Source of the DNA: a virus
Lineage: Duplodnaviria > Heunggongvirae > Uroviricota > Caudoviricetes
IMG/VR virus record: IMGVR_UViG_2558860288_000002
Length of the DNA stretch: 5,739 nucleotides
Direction: 5' to 3' (one strand)
Made by a program: the position numbers and the translations under genes. A model generated the notes under the pieces. The model was not told where the DNA came from. It worked only from the letters and a program-made list of their open reading frames with translations, and ran no database searches. Below are positions 1 through 5,739 of the stretch, piece after piece (within the stretch, counting starts at the first letter, position 1; every line of letters begins with the position of its first letter).

Positions 1-1
1 A

Positions 2-19
2 AACCTGCCGTAGCAGGTT
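2..19 (-). terminator. Candidate stem-loop downstream of ogr at the window edge (7-bp stem AACCTGC/GCAGGTT, 4-nt loop); possible intrinsic terminator whose U-tract would lie beyond position 1
   Basis: Perfect inverted repeat at 2-8 and 13-19, located 8 nt after the ogr stop (27-29). On the minus strand the first base after the stem is T; the remainder is outside the window. Confidence 0.25.
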
Positions 20-26
20 CTCTTTC

Positions 27-245
27 TCAAAAATTCATATGCCCCTGACCACCTGGCAATGGATGTGGAGGAGCAGTAGCAATCAGTGCGGGTGTCACAA
101 TAAACCGGACCACTGTTTCATGGGTAACAAAAGTGCTCCCGCAGTTAATATTTTGGCACTGACAGTAACGCTCTTTGGTGCTTTCAGTTACTTGAAAACT
201 GCTCCTTGTGTGTGCCGCATGACCACACTTTGGACAATTCATCAT
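27..245 (-). CDS. ogr: Ogr/Delta-family zinc-finger late-gene transcriptional activator (72 aa from ATG at 245; the ORF track extends to a GTG at 290)
   Basis: Translation MMNCPKCGHAAHTRSS...KERYCQCQNINCGSTF...PHPLPGGQ has the C-x2-C ... C-x4-C zinc-binding arrangement and a 72-aa length that match my recollection of P2 Ogr (MFHCPLCQHAAH...KERYHQCQNVNC...PHPLPSGQ). AGGGA Shine-Dalgarno about 7 nt upstream of the ATG at 243-245. Lies directly downstream of gpD, as in P2. Confidence 0.85.
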   Translation of the reverse strand: MMNCPKCGHAAHTRSSFQVTESTKERYCQCQNINCGSTFVTHETVVRFIVTPALIATAPPHPLPGGQGHMNF

Positions 246-313
246 ATCCAGATCCCTACCTTTGCTATCAGAATCATTGTAATGATACACAAAATATCAA
301 TATTGAGAACACT

Positions 314-1414
314 TTATTCCATTTCAAGATCATCAATCTTCACTTCGAGTTCAATACTGGTTGTAAAACCGTTATCCGGGCTGACGGTATGTGTCAGAGT
401 CGTAATGGTCCATTCCGCATCATCTATCAGCTGTTTAAAGCCACTGACTTTCACTGGCATTTCCGTGTAGAGATCTGCCCGCCCTTCCGCCAGTTGTAGC
501 GAGAATGACGCAACGCCGCGTTGCAGGCGTTCCCACTGCATTTTTGCCGCCCGTTCGGCGTTGCTCCGGTTGGCATAGGTGCGATTAAGTACCAGCACAT
601 TTTCATCTGTACCCACCAGGTAATCGCCCTGCTTCGCTTCCGGCTCTTTCTTCTGCTTCTTAGTCCTGCGCTTACGCTTCACCGTGGTGCTTTCTTTCTT
701 CGCGGGTTCGCGGGTATGCAACCAGCTGGCAATTACGCCCGTGTAGGCTCCGCGATCTGCCAGGGTAAAGCGGTGACTGTCGCCGTCCTTACGTGTGATA
801 GTGATAACCGGTAGTGGTTTACCGCTGGCGCTTTTACCCTGTCCCTGACGGATGAATAAAAGATTGCCATTTTTCACCGACGCAATAGCACCGTACTGGC
901 GCGCCAGCCGCATCAGAAAACTGCCGTCACTCTCATTGGTCTGGTCTATATGCTCCACGGGTTTATCCGACAGGTCTTCACCCAGTGCCATCTTCAGTTT
1001 GTGCCGCGCAGCTATTTCCTTCACCACTTCCCCAACGGTGGTCTTGTGCCACGATTTTTCACGGCGGGTATTCAGCGTTTCACGAAAATCAGCACTTCGC
1101 GCCCGGATAGTCAGGCGGTCCGGTGCGCCAGTGTGTTCAATCTCGTCCACCGTGAATGCTCCTTTCGGGAAAAGCGGCTGCCCCTTCCAGCCCAGCGCCA
1201 GCGTGATGACCGCACCACGGCGCGGCAGCACGATTTTTCCGTCGGCGTCGTCCAGCTCCAGATCAAGCTGGTCTGCTTCAAAGCCCCGATTGTCCGTCAG
1301 CGTCAGACTCATCAGGCGGTTATCCAGCACAGTGGTGATATCCTTCCCCTCAATACTGATGCTGAATGCGGGAGTTTTGTTGCCTTTGTTAAGCAGTTCA
1401 GAGCTGAAATTCAC
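314..1414 (-). CDS. D: P2 gpD-like phage late control gene D protein (tail/baseplate hub family), 366 aa
   Basis: 366-aa ORF between gpU and ogr, matching P2 T-U-D-ogr synteny and roughly the size of P2 gpD. GTG start (1412-1414) overlaps the gpU stop (GTGA), with a GGGAGGG Shine-Dalgarno 9 nt upstream inside gpU. Assignment rests on synteny, size and general appearance, not on a computed alignment. Confidence 0.8.
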   Translation of the reverse strand: MNFSSELLNKGNKTPAFSISIEGKDITTVLDNRLMSLTLTDNRGFEADQLDLELDDADGKIVLPRRGAVITLALGWKGQPLFPKGAFTVDEIEHTGAPDRLTIRARSADFRETLNTRREKSWHKTTVGEVVKEIAARHKLKMALGEDLSDKPVEHIDQTNESDGSFLMRLARQYGAIASVKNGNLLFIRQGQGKSASGKPLPVITITRKDGDSHRFTLADRGAYTGVIASWLHTREPAKKESTTVKRKRRTKKQKKEPEAKQGDYLVGTDENVLVLNRTYANRSNAERAAKMQWERLQRGVASFSLQLAEGRADLYTEMPVKVSGFKQLIDDAEWTITTLTHTVSPDNGFTTSIELEVKIDDLEME

Positions 1415-1896
1415 GACAGCAGCCCTCCCACCGTTTTACTGATATCGCTTAAGGCAGACGTTGCCGTATCCTGCAAATTATTCAGCTGCGCACTGAGATC
1501 ACCGAACATATCGGACAGAGATTCATCCACCCGTTTGAGCGACAGGGTGAACTCAATCCGGCGCGGCATACCATCGCGGAAAAACTCCGTTTTAGTCTGA
1601 TTCAGTCCCTCAATCACATACATGCCGTAAATCGTGCCGCTGCCTTCAATCAGGGGCCATGCTTTTCCCTGTTCTGCCATCTGCTCCAGAGCCAGCAACG
1701 ACAGCCTGCCGCCCGTTATCTCCGGCATAAGAACACCAGAAAGCGTCAGCATGTCGTTGTCCGGTCCCAGAAACTGCGTGGACGGACGACGGTTTAGCCG
1801 GCTGTTTGCCGCATGTCGCCAGCTGCGTTGATACTGCAGTTCCTGATACGGAACGGTGCGCAGCATAAACACGTACAATCCCAGCACCATCATCAT
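1411..1896 (-). CDS. U: P2 gpU-like tail protein, 161 aa
   Basis: N-terminus MMMVLGLYVFMLRTVPYQELQYQ resembles remembered gpU-family N-termini. Size close to P2 gpU. ATG (1894-1896) overlaps the T stop (ATGA), with an AGGGGGGA Shine-Dalgarno 8 nt upstream. Sits between T and D. Confidence 0.8.
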   Translation of the reverse strand: MMMVLGLYVFMLRTVPYQELQYQRSWRHAANSRLNRRPSTQFLGPDNDMLTLSGVLMPEITGGRLSLLALEQMAEQGKAWPLIEGSGTIYGMYVIEGLNQTKTEFFRDGMPRRIEFTLSLKRVDESLSDMFGDLSAQLNNLQDTATSALSDISKTVGGLLS

Positions 1897-4800
1897 GCGT
1901 CGTATCCCCCCTGATCGCTGTAGTTACTCCTGGCTTTTGCCTTCAGCCTGCGTTCACGTTCATCAAGCTGGCGGGCCACCTCCCGCGCAATATCCTGCGC
2001 ACTTTGTCCTGGCTGCGTCTGAATGATGATCTGCGTCGGTGCCTCAATCCGTTGAACGGGCGGCACAGTGGCTGCACGACTCACCATCGCTTCGCCGCCT
2101 TTCGAGGGAAGTGCCAAAGGATGCAACGGTGGAAGCTCTGCAGGCGCGGCAGCAACGCCCATCATTCCGGCAACAACGGCAGCCAGTGAAGCTGTATTTC
2201 TCCGGCTGGTCACATTTGCCGGGCCGTTAACAATTTCCGGCCCGTTTTCACCGACGATGCCAAACTGCCCGCGCGGGATATAGCCGCCGCTGTCATACAT
2301 CCCCGCAAAGCCATATCCCCATGACGGAAAACCACCCGATGGCATCATCACTTTACCGTCTGCATTCACCGTCGCAGGTTGCTGACGCGTCACTCTTTCC
2401 GGCAGTTTCGCCTTTGCAGCCTCTTTACTGACAATGCCGAGTTTCTCCAGCAACCAGGAAACGCCGGATTTCAGGGAGTCCAGCGGATGCATGACCATAT
2501 TCAGCCCTTCCGCCAGTGCCTCCCCGAATCGTCGCCCCATTGCCGCTGCGCTCTGCAGTTCGGCAGAGGTCGACTTAACGGGCGTCAGCAGATCAGTAAA
2601 CCAGCCCCACAACGCCTGCACTTTGTCGCCAATCCACTGAAACACAGGCTTAAGTGGTTCGAATGCTGCACTGATGGGACCTGCCGCCGCTTTGAATCCT
2701 TCCACCACACCAGCGAGAAATGCGGTGATGGGTTGCCAGTATTTCCAGACAACCAGCGCCACGCCCGCCAGTGCAGTGACCACAAGACCTATCGGACTGA
2801 GCAGAGCACCTAACAGACCAGATATGGCATACAGGGCAACGCGCAGCATCGCCAGCGGACCGGATGCCAGTACTCGCAGCACCGCGCCTGCGGCAGCCAG
2901 TCCACCGCGTAGTGCTGCCAGTGGATTCATAAACATCACAGCAACAGCACGTAAACCGGATAATCCAGACCGCAACAGTGCAACCGGCACACCTGCTACA
3001 GTTTTCAGGACATTCCCCGTCAGTGATGCCGTGCGGCGCAAAGACGACAACGGCGCAGTAAGTAAACCCGCTGCGTTGCCCGATGAAGCAAGCCCGCGTC
3101 GCAGCCGTACCAGTGGAGCGCCAGCTAACCAGGACAACGCGCTGCTGGTTCGTGTTACTGCTGCCGTAACGGAAGGTAACGTTTTGATACCCAGTACAGA
3201 GAATCCCAGACGGATCACTGCCAGCGGCCCCAGCACTGCAGCCAGCGCCACAGCTAAGGTGCCGAGGCCTACGGTAACCGCAGCCACAACAGCCGCTACT
3301 TTCATCAGTGTGCCTGTCAGTTCCGGGTTAGCTTCCACCCAGCGGCGCAACGCCCCCGTGATGCTTTTCACCGTGTACAGAATATCCATCAGCGGCTGGC
3401 GCAGCGTTTCGCCCAGGCTGCTGAAGGTGTTCTGCGCTCCGGTTTTGACCAGCAACCACTGAGCAGAAAGTGAGTCTTTGTTGATGTCGGATTCTTTCTG
3501 CATGGAACCGAGCGCATCATTGCCCGCTGTCAGTTTTAGCTGGCGCCGCAGTTCCGGAAGGTTGTTTGCCAGTTTCGCCGCGTCATCACCAAACTCTTTA
3601 CCAAACAACATGGTCATGGCAGACAGACGCTTGTCCTGCGGCAGTGCGTTCACCTTCTCCAGCACACGCTGGATAGTTCCCATCGCATCCTTCGTCATCT
3701 GCTTTTCAATCACTTCAGGATTGAGTTTCAGCAGATTCATCCCTTCAAAGAAACTCTTGCTTTGCATGGTGGCAATGGACAATTCACGCACCATCGCGTT
3801 TGCTGCACTGGCTGCAACCTCCGGCGCAGCGCCCAGTGTCAGAAAGGTGGAACCCAGTGCCGCCGCTTTACGATAATCCAGACGGTCAGCCACACCGCCC
3901 AGACGTTGCATCACATCAATGATGTCCGCCCCTTTCGACATGGCGTTATCATCCAGATAGTTCAGCGCATCGCCGAGCTGTTCAATATTGCGGGTAGGTA
4001 TTTTGTAGAGCTGGGCGATTTTCCCCAGACTTTCTGACAGTTCATCCGCTGGCAGCTCAAAGGCTGTTGCCGCCTTTGCTGCCGTACTGGCGAAGGCCAG
4101 CAGGTCACGTTTCTGGTCTTCCCAGCTGTCGTCAGGGTTTGCGACGTTCATGCGCGCACCACCTTCAACCAGTGCAGCGAAGTCCACCGCACCGTTTTCC
4201 ATCGGCAACTGTTCGCTGGCAGCCTTGATGACATCCTGCATTTCATAAAAACGTGCAGTGCGGTTGCCAGTATCGTCACGCAGACCATTGACCTGCTTTG
4301 CCACACCTTTCATGGCATCTTCCATGCTGGTATAGCTTTTTACTGCCGCCATCACTGGCGCACCCATTGCCAGCCCTGCAGCCGTGGTAGTGGCTCCGGC
4401 TCCTGCGATGCGATCGCGCACTTCAAGCCGTCTTGAGTATTGTTCTCTGACAGCGTTCATCCGTGCCTGTTGTTCACCCAGACGTTTAAGTGCTTTTTGC
4501 TGGCCCTCCAATGCCTGCCTTGTTTCTTCAGCATTTTTCTTAAGTTCTCGCTGGGCACTACTGAGTTGTCTGGTATCAATCCCTGATTCTTTAAGTGCCT
4601 GACGTTGTCTCTGGACCGCCCCCAACAAGCCGTTATAGGTCTGCTGAAGTTCCTGTGCTCGTGTTTTGGCCTGACTGAATAACTTTGCCTGCGCGGCGGT
4701 TGGCCTGTTAGTGGCAGCAAATTGTGTGGCGAGTTTTGCCGCCTCTTCGCGGGCTGCGTTCAGGTTGTTGGCTGTTATGGCTAGTTGCGAGCGCGTCTTG

Positions 4801-4970
4801 CGAAATTCATCAATTCTGCCAGCCTGCTTATTTAGTTCTTTGAGGCTGTTTCGGGTATTCTGAATTGCGCCAGCCAGCTCTTTCGAACTGGCCTGTGCAG
4901 CACGAAATGGGCGGGTGAGTTTGTCAACCGCATTAAGAATGACCTGCAGGCGCAGGTTATTATCACTCAT
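1893..4970 (-). CDS. T: Phage tail tape measure protein (gpT-like), 1025 aa
   Basis: Single uninterrupted 1025-aa ORF. The N-terminal ~190 aa are Q/A/K/R/E-rich and look coiled-coil. A central segment (KSYTSMEDAMKGVAKQ...) looks like a tape-measure core. A long Ala/Leu/Gly/Val-rich hydrophobic region (aa ~555-760) contains ~21-aa periodic repeats. It is the largest gene in the block and lies directly upstream of gpU/gpD. Confidence 0.9.
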   Translation of the reverse strand: MSDNNLRLQVILNAVDKLTRPFRAAQASSKELAGAIQNTRNSLKELNKQAGRIDEFRKTRSQLAITANNLNAAREEAAKLATQFAATNRPTAAQAKLFSQAKTRAQELQQTYNGLLGAVQRQRQALKESGIDTRQLSSAQRELKKNAEETRQALEGQQKALKRLGEQQARMNAVREQYSRRLEVRDRIAGAGATTTAAGLAMGAPVMAAVKSYTSMEDAMKGVAKQVNGLRDDTGNRTARFYEMQDVIKAASEQLPMENGAVDFAALVEGGARMNVANPDDSWEDQKRDLLAFASTAAKAATAFELPADELSESLGKIAQLYKIPTRNIEQLGDALNYLDDNAMSKGADIIDVMQRLGGVADRLDYRKAAALGSTFLTLGAAPEVAASAANAMVRELSIATMQSKSFFEGMNLLKLNPEVIEKQMTKDAMGTIQRVLEKVNALPQDKRLSAMTMLFGKEFGDDAAKLANNLPELRRQLKLTAGNDALGSMQKESDINKDSLSAQWLLVKTGAQNTFSSLGETLRQPLMDILYTVKSITGALRRWVEANPELTGTLMKVAAVVAAVTVGLGTLAVALAAVLGPLAVIRLGFSVLGIKTLPSVTAAVTRTSSALSWLAGAPLVRLRRGLASSGNAAGLLTAPLSSLRRTASLTGNVLKTVAGVPVALLRSGLSGLRAVAVMFMNPLAALRGGLAAAGAVLRVLASGPLAMLRVALYAISGLLGALLSPIGLVVTALAGVALVVWKYWQPITAFLAGVVEGFKAAAGPISAAFEPLKPVFQWIGDKVQALWGWFTDLLTPVKSTSAELQSAAAMGRRFGEALAEGLNMVMHPLDSLKSGVSWLLEKLGIVSKEAAKAKLPERVTRQQPATVNADGKVMMPSGGFPSWGYGFAGMYDSGGYIPRGQFGIVGENGPEIVNGPANVTSRRNTASLAAVVAGMMGVAAAPAELPPLHPLALPSKGGEAMVSRAATVPPVQRIEAPTQIIIQTQPGQSAQDIAREVARQLDERERRLKAKARSNYSDQGGYDA
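2766..3122 (-). repeat. In-frame periodic repeat inside the tape measure gene: about six ~21-aa units of the form PL..LR..L....G..L
   Basis: Protein segments APLVRLRRGLASSGNAAGLLT / APLSSLRRTASLTGNVLKTVAG / VPVALLRSGLSGLRAVAVMFMN / PLAALRGGLAAAGAVLRVLASG / PLAMLRVALYAISGLLGALLS / PIGLVVTALAGVALVV (T residues ~617-735). Confidence 0.5.
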
Positions 4971-5328
4971 CGTTGGCCCCGCTTCTCTGAATTGCTTTAT
5001 ACCGCCATTCCAGCACTTCGGTCAGCGGCATAACGTCAGTAACGGATGGCGGCCAGTGAAAAATGGTGGCGATAACGCCACCATTGATCACCACTTCGCT
5101 GTTAATGCGCGTGCGGTCAGCCTCCAGTACAAACTCACTGGTTTTCATGGTGATGTTGTCAGCGGCCTCAATGACCATTGATTTGATGCCCCTGACATAC
5201 CAGCGCCCGGTGGCGGGTTCGTATTCAAACCAGCCACCGTCAGGATGTTCTGTCACGCAGGCGTTCGCCGACGTCGACGGTGGCGCGAACTGATTCGAAT
5301 AGATGGCGGGTACGGCTGCAGACGACAA
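4963..5328 (-). CDS. Hypothetical phage ORF at the position expected for the tail assembly chaperone E/E'; possibly an N-terminally truncated or fused remnant. The first ATG is at 5178, giving a 71-aa product (4963..5178)
   Basis: Open frame ending 8 nt inside the T start. The track start is a TTG at 5328 and the frame stays open upstream with no ATG until 5176-5178. Its upper part overlaps the truncated endolysin ORF in another frame. No intact partner ORF exists in the frame from which a -1 shift would enter it (stops at 5253, 5145, 5088 and 5022). Identity is unresolved. Confidence 0.3.
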   Translation of the reverse strand: MSSAAVPAIYSNQFAPPSTSANACVTEHPDGGWFEYEPATGRWYVRGIKSMVIEAADNITMKTSEFVLEADRTRINSEVVINGGVIATIFHWPPSVTDVMPLTEVLEWRYKAIQRSGANDE

Positions 5329-5453
5329 CCTTCGTAATCGGCAATCAGTTTCAGCCCTTCCACGGAGGTGTGAAGCTGCTGAAAACCCGGCAGCGTGGCA
5401 GCAATAGCCAGCACGGCCCCGACAAGGCAGCGTTTAACGATTGATGGATTCAT
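5253..5453 (-). pseudogene. Truncated SAR-type endolysin (T4-lysozyme-like, GH24): only ~48 N-terminal codons are recognisable (5310..5453), followed by an out-of-frame Arg-rich tail
   Basis: N-terminus MNPSIVKRCLVGAVLAIAATLPG is a weakly hydrophobic signal-anchor-release-like segment, followed by EGLKLIADYEGCRLQPY, which resembles the start of the lysozyme catalytic motif (catalytic Glu region). Full-length members are about 160-180 aa; here the ORF ends at 66 aa with PPSIRISSRHRRRRRTPA, which does not look like lysozyme. The ATG at 5451-5453 overlaps the holin 3' end by 20 nt, and a GGAGG sits just upstream. Confidence 0.55.
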
Positions 5454-5649
5454 AGTCCTCCCGCGAGATCTGCCCGTCGCGCAGAAGCTGGTAGGCTTTG
5501 TGTTTGTAGTACCAGTTGATAGCCAGCATCAGCACACCAATCATCAGGCCGCCCAGCGTTGAGGCATCCTTGATGGACAAATCGCCCAGCCAGGCCAGCA
5601 CAACGGCGATGCAGTACGTGATAAAGGCGCTGATTCGCTCAAGCGTCAT
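5434..5649 (-). CDS. Class II (two-TMD) phage holin, pinholin-like, 71 aa
   Basis: 71-aa product with two predicted transmembrane segments (ISAFITYCIAVVLAWLG and TLGGLMIGVLMLAINWYY) and a charged C-terminus (KHKAYQLLRDGQISREDYESINR). Lies immediately upstream of, and overlapping, the SAR-endolysin start, which is the usual holin-endolysin arrangement. GGGA Shine-Dalgarno about 7 nt upstream of the ATG at 5647-5649. Confidence 0.65.
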   Translation of the reverse strand: MTLERISAFITYCIAVVLAWLGDLSIKDASTLGGLMIGVLMLAINWYYKHKAYQLLRDGQISREDYESINR

Positions 5650-5727
5650 AATTCAGTCCCATAGCTGGACGGTCTGCACGGTGGTGGTGGTCGGTATGTC
5701 CGGCAGCTCCACCTGCAGCCCGTGAGG

Positions 5728-5739
5728 TAAAAAGGGGCC
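5728..5739 (-). terminator. Possible 3' half of an intrinsic terminator upstream of the holin (GGCCCC followed by TTTTT on the minus strand); the stem partner would lie beyond the window end
   Basis: Minus strand reads 5'-GGCCCCTTTTTACC-3' at 5739..5726, about 80 nt upstream of the holin ATG. Lambdoid late operons carry a terminator (tR'-like) just upstream of the holin gene. Only half the element is visible. Confidence 0.2.

Follow-up and report, generated by a model that had tools for sequence, protein, structure and literature searches.

An open reading frame at the E/E' position of a P2-like prophage in Escherichia coli ECC-Z is very probably a V::E' deletion-scar pseudogene

Introduction

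Phage P2 expresses the C-terminal part of its E+E' protein by a programmed -1 frameshift (Christie et al. 2002, as cited in PMC3091744), an arrangement comparable to that of G/GT in lambda (Xu, Hendrix and Duda 2004, as cited in the same article). PMC3091744 gives TTTTTTG as the P2 slip site and 91 and 142 aa as the lengths of E and E+E'.

The window (the whole 5,739-nt stretch of DNA analysed here, IMG/VR record IMGVR_UViG_2558860288_000002) carries at the corresponding place, immediately before the tape measure gene T, a minus-strand ORF at 4963..5328, listed as 121 aa from a mechanically assigned TTG start. The original prediction held that no recognisable E/E' frameshift pair precedes T. 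It offered three ideas for the ORF: a 3' fragment of a tail gene fused at a deletion joint, a chaperone that dispenses with the frameshift, or a 71-aa gene starting at the ATG at 5178. What is this reading frame, and what became of E and E'?

Results

Source of the window

The window is the end of contig AHHN01000009.1 in the draft assembly GCA_000498235.1 of E. coli ECC-Z, and window and source contig both end within gene X, at 5739. The source contig carries the tmRNA gene ssrA and smpB about 0.6 kb away from the ogr end of the prophage, and the host flank recN-nadK-grpE is 100% E. coli core genome.

Three collinear pieces and two deletion joints

By blastn, the minus strand of the window resolves into three collinear pieces, in order, of an intact Elveevirus-type P2-like phage. 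Escherichia phage Cartapus (NC_070909.1) and the prophage of E. coli B27 served as intact references, and the B27 prophage reproduces the same three-piece map by blastn. The pieces and the joints between them are as follows.

Window 5739..5311, minus strand: X', holin and endolysin nt 1-143, equal to Cartapus 7051..7479 (blastn 98.4%)
Window 5310..5073, minus strand: V-internal piece, equal to Cartapus 10121..10358 (blastn 96.6%)
Window about 5072..1, minus strand: E' end, T, U, D and ogr, equal to Cartapus about 17741..22812 (blastn 97.2%, segment 17729-22812)
Window 5310..5312, no strand: Junction 1, endolysin nt 143 to gpV nt 241 (parent and junction sequences)
Window 5072..5075, no strand: Junction 2, gpV nt 478 to nt 11 of the annotated E' ORF (parent and junction sequences)

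At Junction 1, where the parents read ...CAGCCGTA/TCAG and ...TGCGTTA/CCCGCC (the slash marks the breakpoint), both share a 2-nt microhomology, TA, at 5312-5311. This deletion measures 2,448 nt by the coordinates of the B27 prophage and 2,641 nt by those of Cartapus, and it took the 3' part of the endolysin gene, lysB/C, R, S and the 5' part of V. The parents of Junction 2, ...GGCGTTA/CCCAGG and ...GCAGATA/TCGCC, again share a 2-nt TA, here at 5074-5073, and a 7-nt repeat, TGGTGGC, lies out of register just upstream of the joint in both. The second deletion spans about 7.4-7.6 kb and removed the 3' part of V, W, J, I, H, G, the invertase gene, FI and FII; the whole of E, the slip site and E'-specific codons 1-21 went with them. 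In line with this map, tblastn with Cartapus LysB, R, S, W, J, I, H, FI, FII and E gave zero matches in the window.

The genes and gene fragments that remain are listed below.

5656..5739, minus strand: 3' end of X, last 28 codons (tblastn, Cartapus X aa 40-67, 100%; Pfam Phage_tail_X on the source contig)
5434..5649, minus strand: HP1-family holin, intact, 71 aa (PF16080, E = 4.3e-09; 100% to the Cartapus holin)
5311..5453, minus strand: 5' fragment of a SAR-type endolysin gene, nt 1-143, that is 47 codons and 2 nt (blastn 98.4%, ending at 5311)
4963..5328, minus strand: chimeric, putative pseudo-ORF, consisting of 6 endolysin codons in a foreign frame, gpV 81-159 and E' 110-145
5073..5310, minus strand: internal gpV fragment, nt 241-478, aa 81-159 of 192, native frame (blastn, BLASTP, TIGR01644, structure 3qr8)
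4963..5072, minus strand: 3' end of E', last 36 codons and TGA, overlapping T by 8 nt (PF06528; identity to E+E')
1893..4970, minus strand: tape measure gene T, intact, 1025 aa (PF10145; full-length, 98.4% to Cartapus T)
1411..1896, minus strand: U, intact (full-length tblastn 98.6-98.9%; Pfam GpU on the source contig)
314..1414, minus strand: D, intact (full-length tblastn 98.6-98.9%; Pfam GPD on the source contig)
27..245, minus strand: ogr, intact (full-length tblastn 98.6-98.9%; Pfam Ogr_Delta on the source contig)

The endolysin frame continues out of frame into V and stops at 5253, which gives a 66-aa ORF at 5253..5453. Only endolysin aa 1-48 were matched in the window by tblastn; the truncated product carries the NCBI name 'putative lysozyme protein R of prophage'.

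Composition of the open reading frame

ORF 4963..5328 is a chimera of two unrelated tail genes, V and E'. Its codons map to endolysin DNA (1-6), gpV (7-85) and E' (86-121). The native frames of gpV and E' thereby account for 115 of its 121 codons, and because of this the openness of the ORF needs no chance statistic. The joint from V to E' is in frame, an outcome with a 1-in-3 chance.

The E' portion is well defined. A Pfam scan of the ORF, which the original prediction had proposed as a check, returned PF06528 (Phage_P2_GpE) as its sole match, at residues 86-119 (E = 9.7e-16), which cover profile positions 4-37 of 37; this family comprises the short ORF in the -1 frame directly before T in P2-like phages, i.e. 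E'. Alignment to intact P2-like E/E', another proposed check, gave 36/36 identity between ORF residues 86-121 and residues 110-145 of the reconstructed E+E' of both Cartapus and B27, and residues 107-142 of P2 E+E' are homologous to the same part. The stop TGA of the ORF lies at 4965..4963 and the T start ATG at 4970..4968, so the 8-nt overlap described in the original prediction is real; it is there because the end of the ORF is the genuine 3' end of E', which carries the ancestral E'/T overlap.

The preceding part is gpV. The V piece is 100% identical to B27 V over 240 nt and 96.6% identical to Cartapus V (blastn), and ORF residues 5-85 match Cartapus gpV 79-159 at 77 of 81 positions (95%, BLASTP). 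Against TIGR01644 (phage_P2_V; cut-off 46.75 bits) this part scores 70.6 bits over profile positions 72-155 of 192; for comparison, intact Cartapus gpV scores 214 bits over positions 1-191. Residues 81-151 of the P2 gpV structure 3qr8 likewise match the N-terminal part of the ORF (E = 1e-07). The N-terminal domain and C-terminal tip that belong to a full-length gpV under TIGR01644 are absent from ORF 4963..5328.

A native start codon is missing from the ORF, and gene callers begin its product at the ATG at 5178, which yields a 71-aa protein, EST63410.1, named 'putative phage tail protein'.

The E/E+E' pair in intact relatives and in the window

Gene E of Cartapus and of B27 encodes 100 aa and contains ACT-TTT-TTG, i.e. 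T-TTT-TTG, in the E frame (Cartapus 17671-17677; B27 23767); the heptamer is also found in P2. A reconstructed slip at this site in Cartapus and B27 yields a 145-aa E+E' whose last 36 residues also conclude the window ORF. Reconstructing the P2 pair in this way gave an E of 91 aa and an E+E' of 142 aa, equal to the published values. In the intact relatives 63 nt separate the heptamer from the downstream position at which the window re-enters E'; E, the heptamer and 21 E'-specific codons were therefore lost in the second deletion. Thirty-six of the 57 E'-specific codons are left, and the ORF is missing all 88 residues shared with E (the TAC_7 domain) along with the other 21 E'-specific residues.

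Searches for the missing components agree with this account. An E gene (about 90-100 aa, Phage_TAC_7) between FII and T is absent from the window by tblastn and from the ORF by Pfam scan, the gpE of an intact relative had zero tblastn matches in the window, and TTTTTTG has zero copies on its minus strand. The only XXXYYYZ heptamers within 4900-5739 are at 5736 and 5388, in X and in the endolysin gene. A gpE in another frame of 5060-5330 with its own slippery heptamer, a finding that would have spoken against the original prediction, was negative by both tblastn and heptamer scan. The frame that would feed a -1 slip into the ORF is closed by TGAs at 5255-5253, 5147-5145, 5090-5088 and 5024-5022, the same four stops that had been reported earlier by their low coordinates (5253, 5145, 5088 and 5022).

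The T-run CCATTTTTCAC at 5066..5056 has no X-XXY-YYZ pattern, as had been noted. It was rejected as a slip site, being inside E' and downstream of both the former heptamer position and the E stop. The run is also present in the intact B27 prophage, and Cartapus has ATCTTTC there.

Three of the four defining features of a P2-type E/E+E' pair (the E gene, the heptamer and an open zero frame for slippage into E') are consequently missing from the window, and the fourth, a -1 frame extension of the PF06528 family ending across the T start, is represented by a partial E'. With E, the heptamer and the opening 21 E' codons gone, the window therefore cannot give rise to a frameshift product. The statement that no recognisable E/E' pair stands before T is accordingly right for E and for the heptamer, but not for the 3' end of E', which is recognisable by its PF06528 match.

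Reproducibility and rarity of the junctions

Both junctions are found, 100% identical over 840 nt, in the independently assembled Logan contig SRR5569415_874, from either a different isolate or the same strain re-sequenced; the SRR5569415 contig extends further upstream, into X and L. Elsewhere they are conspicuously rare. Queries of 61 nt across the junctions had zero matches in 5,426 complete E. coli genomes, and the exact junction patterns occurred 0 times in species-representative genomes, IMG/VR and JGI metagenomes. EST63410.1 (71 aa) and EST63411.1 (the truncated endolysin) are singleton clusters among about 15 billion proteins. The junction pair is strain-private, present in ECC-Z and SRR5569415 only.

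Recurrent breakpoints in other prophages

Endolysin nt 143 (...CCGTA/) is also the left end of two more deletions with different right partners: in IAL7255 and three sister strains it is joined to the 3' end of R, and in IMG/VR contig 638341082_000009 it is joined inside T. Endolysin residues 1-48, used as a protein query, matched 38 truncated endolysins, which diverge after residue 53/54 in 12-13 cases (with different tails), after 47-49 in 4-5 and after 36-38 in 4; most residue-53/54 loci were found via truncation at that point, and the enrichment rests on the distribution within this protein search.

Nine residue-53/54 loci were fetched, and in all nine the break falls at endolysin nt 159-161. 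Different partners were mapped for eight of them (V:241, D:1043, J:840, D:231 with a 20-nt filler, lysB:392, inv:462, inv:430 and J:52), with exact microhomologies of 0-3 nt. The left flanks of these loci differ from one another by 6-30 substitutions per 855 nt, the same as from intact phages, and the loci therefore represent independent lineages; they come from several assemblers and sources. One of the nine, remnant L011, retains gpV nt 241-480 on another haplotype, with other partners on both sides. Both ends of the gpV fragment fall within a 9-nt direct repeat, GCGTTA/CCC. The 7-mer GCCGTAT has 5 copies in the prophage, 4 of which are within 17 nt of a mapped break.

Truncation of the endolysin at this position affects only about 1% of copies in complete genomes. 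A drop in megablast places from 954 to 752 across the site was at first a candidate coverage step and was rejected as allele divergence: in sensitive mode, the right-hand segment is found at 998 places in complete genomes versus 1009 for the holin/endolysin-5' segment.

Several candidate causes were rejected. DNA folding of +/-45 nt around the break gave z = -1.2 and 0.2 for a hairpin, which is not significant; a pseudo-cos terminase site had zero similarity to the cos region of Cartapus or B27; and an IS element at the fixed end was seen at none of the nine further junction loci. A type I-E CRISPR spacer against the site gave zero matches to one guessed repeat-spacer-repeat query, a weak search of a single design. 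No description of such a deletion hot spot was found in the literature by full-text search.

Discussion

We conclude with high confidence that ORF 4963..5328 is a V::E' deletion-scar pseudogene in a decaying P2-like prophage of E. coli ECC-Z, next to ssrA. Two illegitimate deletions at TA microhomologies joined X'-holin-endolysin (nt 1-143) to gpV (nt 241-478), and this in turn to E' (last 36 codons)-T-U-D-ogr. They removed E, T-TTT-TTG and 21 E' codons and also the genes for tube, sheath, baseplate, fibre, tail completion and spanin, and the ORF is an accidental in-frame read-through from the gpV fragment into the E' remnant. Since T, U, D, ogr and the holin gene are full-length and 98.4-100% identical to Cartapus, the deletions are probably recent.

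With no native start, promoter or partner proteins, the ORF presumably does nothing. The V and F late promoters would have lain within the deleted DNA, judged from the P2 map, which places them upstream of V and FI. If the O-operon promoter beyond the contig end persists and Ogr is made, a transcript X-holin-endolysin'-V'::E'-T-U-D could result, and transcription of the late operon would then yield at most a junk peptide from an internal ATG of the chimera. Two points run counter to the pseudogene reading: a fusion under selection would be in frame too, and the breakpoints recur in other lineages, so that the deletions are perhaps not purely random.

That the ORF, or its 71-aa version from the ATG at 5178, is a working tail chaperone with no need of a frameshift would fit the significant PF06528 (GpE) match, the retained overlap with the T start and the gene-caller annotation as a putative tail protein. 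Such a protein would nonetheless have to manage with neither the E domain nor 21 of the 57 E'-specific residues and with a gpV fragment for its N-terminal two thirds, in a prophage whose tube, sheath and baseplate genes, which it would serve, are deleted. Its singleton status and the absence of its junctions from the complete E. coli, species-representative, viral and metagenome collections speak against it as well, and we regard this reading as extremely improbable; neither the 71-aa gene nor the frameshift-independent chaperone of the original prediction is supported. An assembly artefact, in which a chimeric contig hides a true genome with a normal V...E-E'-T order, might be suspected from a short-read draft source, a window at a contig end and the zero complete genomes with these junctions. 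The two joints are, however, present base for base in SRR5569415, which was assembled by another pipeline; they share 2 nt only, far under any assembler k-mer overlap. The three pieces are moreover collinear with the phage map, and analogous real deletions exist in complete long-read genomes, e.g. IAL7255 and N196. There is very little chance that the mosaic is artefactual.

Retention of the V::E' chimera for a new role, e.g. dominant-negative poisoning of tail assembly in superinfecting P2-like phages, would account for the in-frame fusion and for the unrelated remnant L011, which keeps gpV nt 241-480 fused in frame to T codon 567. Against it, the chimera lacks a native start and ribosome-binding context and is known from a single strain, and in L011 the reading frame arriving from the endolysin is out of register with the gpV fragment. 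Two in-frame joints amount to a 1-in-9 chance, and the recurring boundaries are explained at least equally well if the 9-nt repeat GCGTTACCC is a mutational hot spot. A selected function is in our estimation very improbable. Of the three ideas put forward originally, the 3' tail-gene fragment fused at a deletion joint came closest, for a fusion it is, but the fragment is an internal one (gpV aa 81-159 of 192). The observation made at the outset is thus confirmed and its interpretation partly supported.

E/E' is missing here through decay and not because an alternative chaperone strategy is in use, and the ORF is an ordinary deletion scar with nothing novel in itself. This settles the annotation of EST63410.1 ('putative phage tail protein') and EST63411.1 ('lysozyme') as a fusion and a truncation pseudogene. 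It also offers a lesson, namely that two real frames can fuse into an open frame that sits at the 'right' place.

Only the recurrent breakpoints are of wider interest. The recurrence of endolysin and gpV breakpoints in independent lineages suggests a deletion hot spot, probably a mutational one. A more specific proposal, that the left joint of the ORF sits in a site-specific hot spot where endolysin nt 143 and nt 159-161 fix at least 12 mapped deletions, is tentative and on present data rather unlikely. If it were true, and a sequence-specific break or replication arrest (caused by a nuclease or defence system, or at a pseudo-site for a recombinase) were responsible instead of chance microhomology, it would amount to a directed, undescribed inactivation of P2-like prophages, by a route that disables the endolysin first. 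Systematic confirmation would mean that prophage decay in E. coli is non-random by position and preferentially knocks out the lysis enzyme.

Comparison with known systems

Compared with the E/E+E' genes of P2, the ORF ends in 36 codons homologous to the E+E' C-terminus and about half identical to P2, and the overlap with the T start is exactly as in P2. The two differ in that the window has no E, no heptamer and not the 21 E' codons, and in that its frame is entered from a gpV fragment. Likeness to the P2 gpV spike (TIGR01644; 3qr8, 3aqj) lies in the alignment of ORF residues 5-85 to P2 gpV 81-151, whereas only 79-81 internal residues are kept, and aa 1-80 and aa 160-192 are missing.

The closest parallel is with defective P2-like E. 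coli prophages, which share with ECC-Z internal deletions with 0-6 nt of microhomology, loss of lysis and tail genes beside neighbours near-identical to intact phages, and integration at a known type of att site (ssrA). The ECC-Z element has the hallmarks of this class: near-identical collinear segments with clean deletion joints, loss of essential virion genes (the endolysin breaks off at aa 48, and only aa 79-159 of V are left), and chromosomal integration at a phage attachment site (ssrA). Decayed copies of the same phage type include N196, in which the endolysin is intact and V is cut; IAL7255, in which the endolysin is cut, W is joined to E' and T is joined to D; and EC71, a further decayed variant. 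The ogrK/yegZ remnant of K-12, reportedly described by Barreiro and Haggard-Ljungquist in 1992, is another example. What sets ECC-Z apart from these defective prophages is that its joints create an open chimeric frame at the E/E' position.

Recurrent breakpoints in the endolysin gene

Across independent P2-like prophage lineages, different deletions share left endpoints at endolysin nt 143 and nt 159-161. The loci behind this observation are the window, the map of the intact E. coli B27 prophage (L007), L003, L009, and L011-L019.

Window 5311|5310; L007 13554: endolysin break at nt 143
L007 13570-13572: endolysin break at nt 159-161

Three partners were seen for the left end at nt 143. A break at nt 159-161 was seen at nine junction loci, and the partners of the eight that were mapped are all different. 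At the protein level, truncated endolysins with 12-13 different tails diverge after residue 53/54. The recurrent breaks show no more than 0-3 nt of microhomology, and the recurrent endolysin junctions examined contain no IS element. These two positions in the endolysin gene look like a deletion hot spot.

The nt-143 break lies within the 14-mer GCAGCCGTATCAGT (L007 13546-13559). An exact inverted copy of this 14-mer is found in portal gene Q, at a distance of 8 nt from the deletion break of a differently deleted copy of the same phage type in E. coli N196. The 7-mer GCCGTAT occurs five times in the prophage, and four of these copies are no more than 17 nt away from a mapped break. These are post hoc observations on loci that are not an unbiased set.

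L007 7510-7538, 13546-13559, 26081-26087: places of the GCAGCCGTATCAGT and GCCGTAT motifs

The 14 nt directly right of the nt-160 break, CTGGACCGACGGCA (L007 13573-13586), also have an exact inverted copy (L007 30135-30148), in this case in ybjL, the host gene that borders the prophage where it is integrated at ybjL. This match is probably a coincidence.

The gpV fragment and the hairpin at its junction with E'

The internal gpV fragment of the window (nt 241-478/480; window 5073..5310) is also kept in an unrelated decayed remnant, L011 (6161..6400). There it is of a different haplotype and both flanking partners differ as well, being endolysin nt 160 on one side and T nt 1699 on the other. 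Both fragment ends are held in a 9-nt direct repeat inside V, GCGTTA|CCC (L007 15997-16005 and 16235-16243).

The junction of gpV nt 478 with E' coincides exactly with a terminator-like hairpin, TGGTGGCGTTATCGCCA and then CCATTTTTCA. This hairpin lies within the chimeric gpV-E' ORF and upstream of T. In intact relatives, a near-palindrome (TGGTGGC-TGATATC-GCCACCA) already occupies this place within E', and the slip site lies ~50 nt upstream of it.

Window 5083..5067, T-run to 5058, minus strand: terminator-like hairpin

Comparison with other copies of the prophage

The decay pattern in E. coli IAL7255 (L003 7336..7470 and 9233..9250) parallels that of the window. Its endolysin is cut at nt 143, the last 20 codons of E' are fused to W nt 75, and D nt 701 is fused to T nt 1783; an E' remnant directly before T is thus not unique to the window.

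In the window, the holin (5434..5649) is intact and 100% identical to that of the intact phage Cartapus, the SAR-type endolysin (5253..5453) is cut after codon 47 and continues out of frame into V sequence, and the spanin genes are gone. It is thus the enzyme, not the holin, at which the lysis cassette has been disabled.

One decayed relative, SRR17302178 (L015), encodes a 585-aa reverse transcriptase (RVT_1; 948..2705) and carries a SIR2-domain gene (1..257). Both lie in the accessory region, to the left of the portal gene, and are probably defence cargo.

The ogr end of the remnant in the source contig of the window (L004) adjoins the tmRNA gene ssrA and smpB, whereas most other decayed copies examined adjoin ybjL, which indicates at least two integration sites for the same phage type in E. 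coli.

L004 6347..6709, 6924..7406, minus strand: features at the ogr end (ssrA/smpB neighbourhood)
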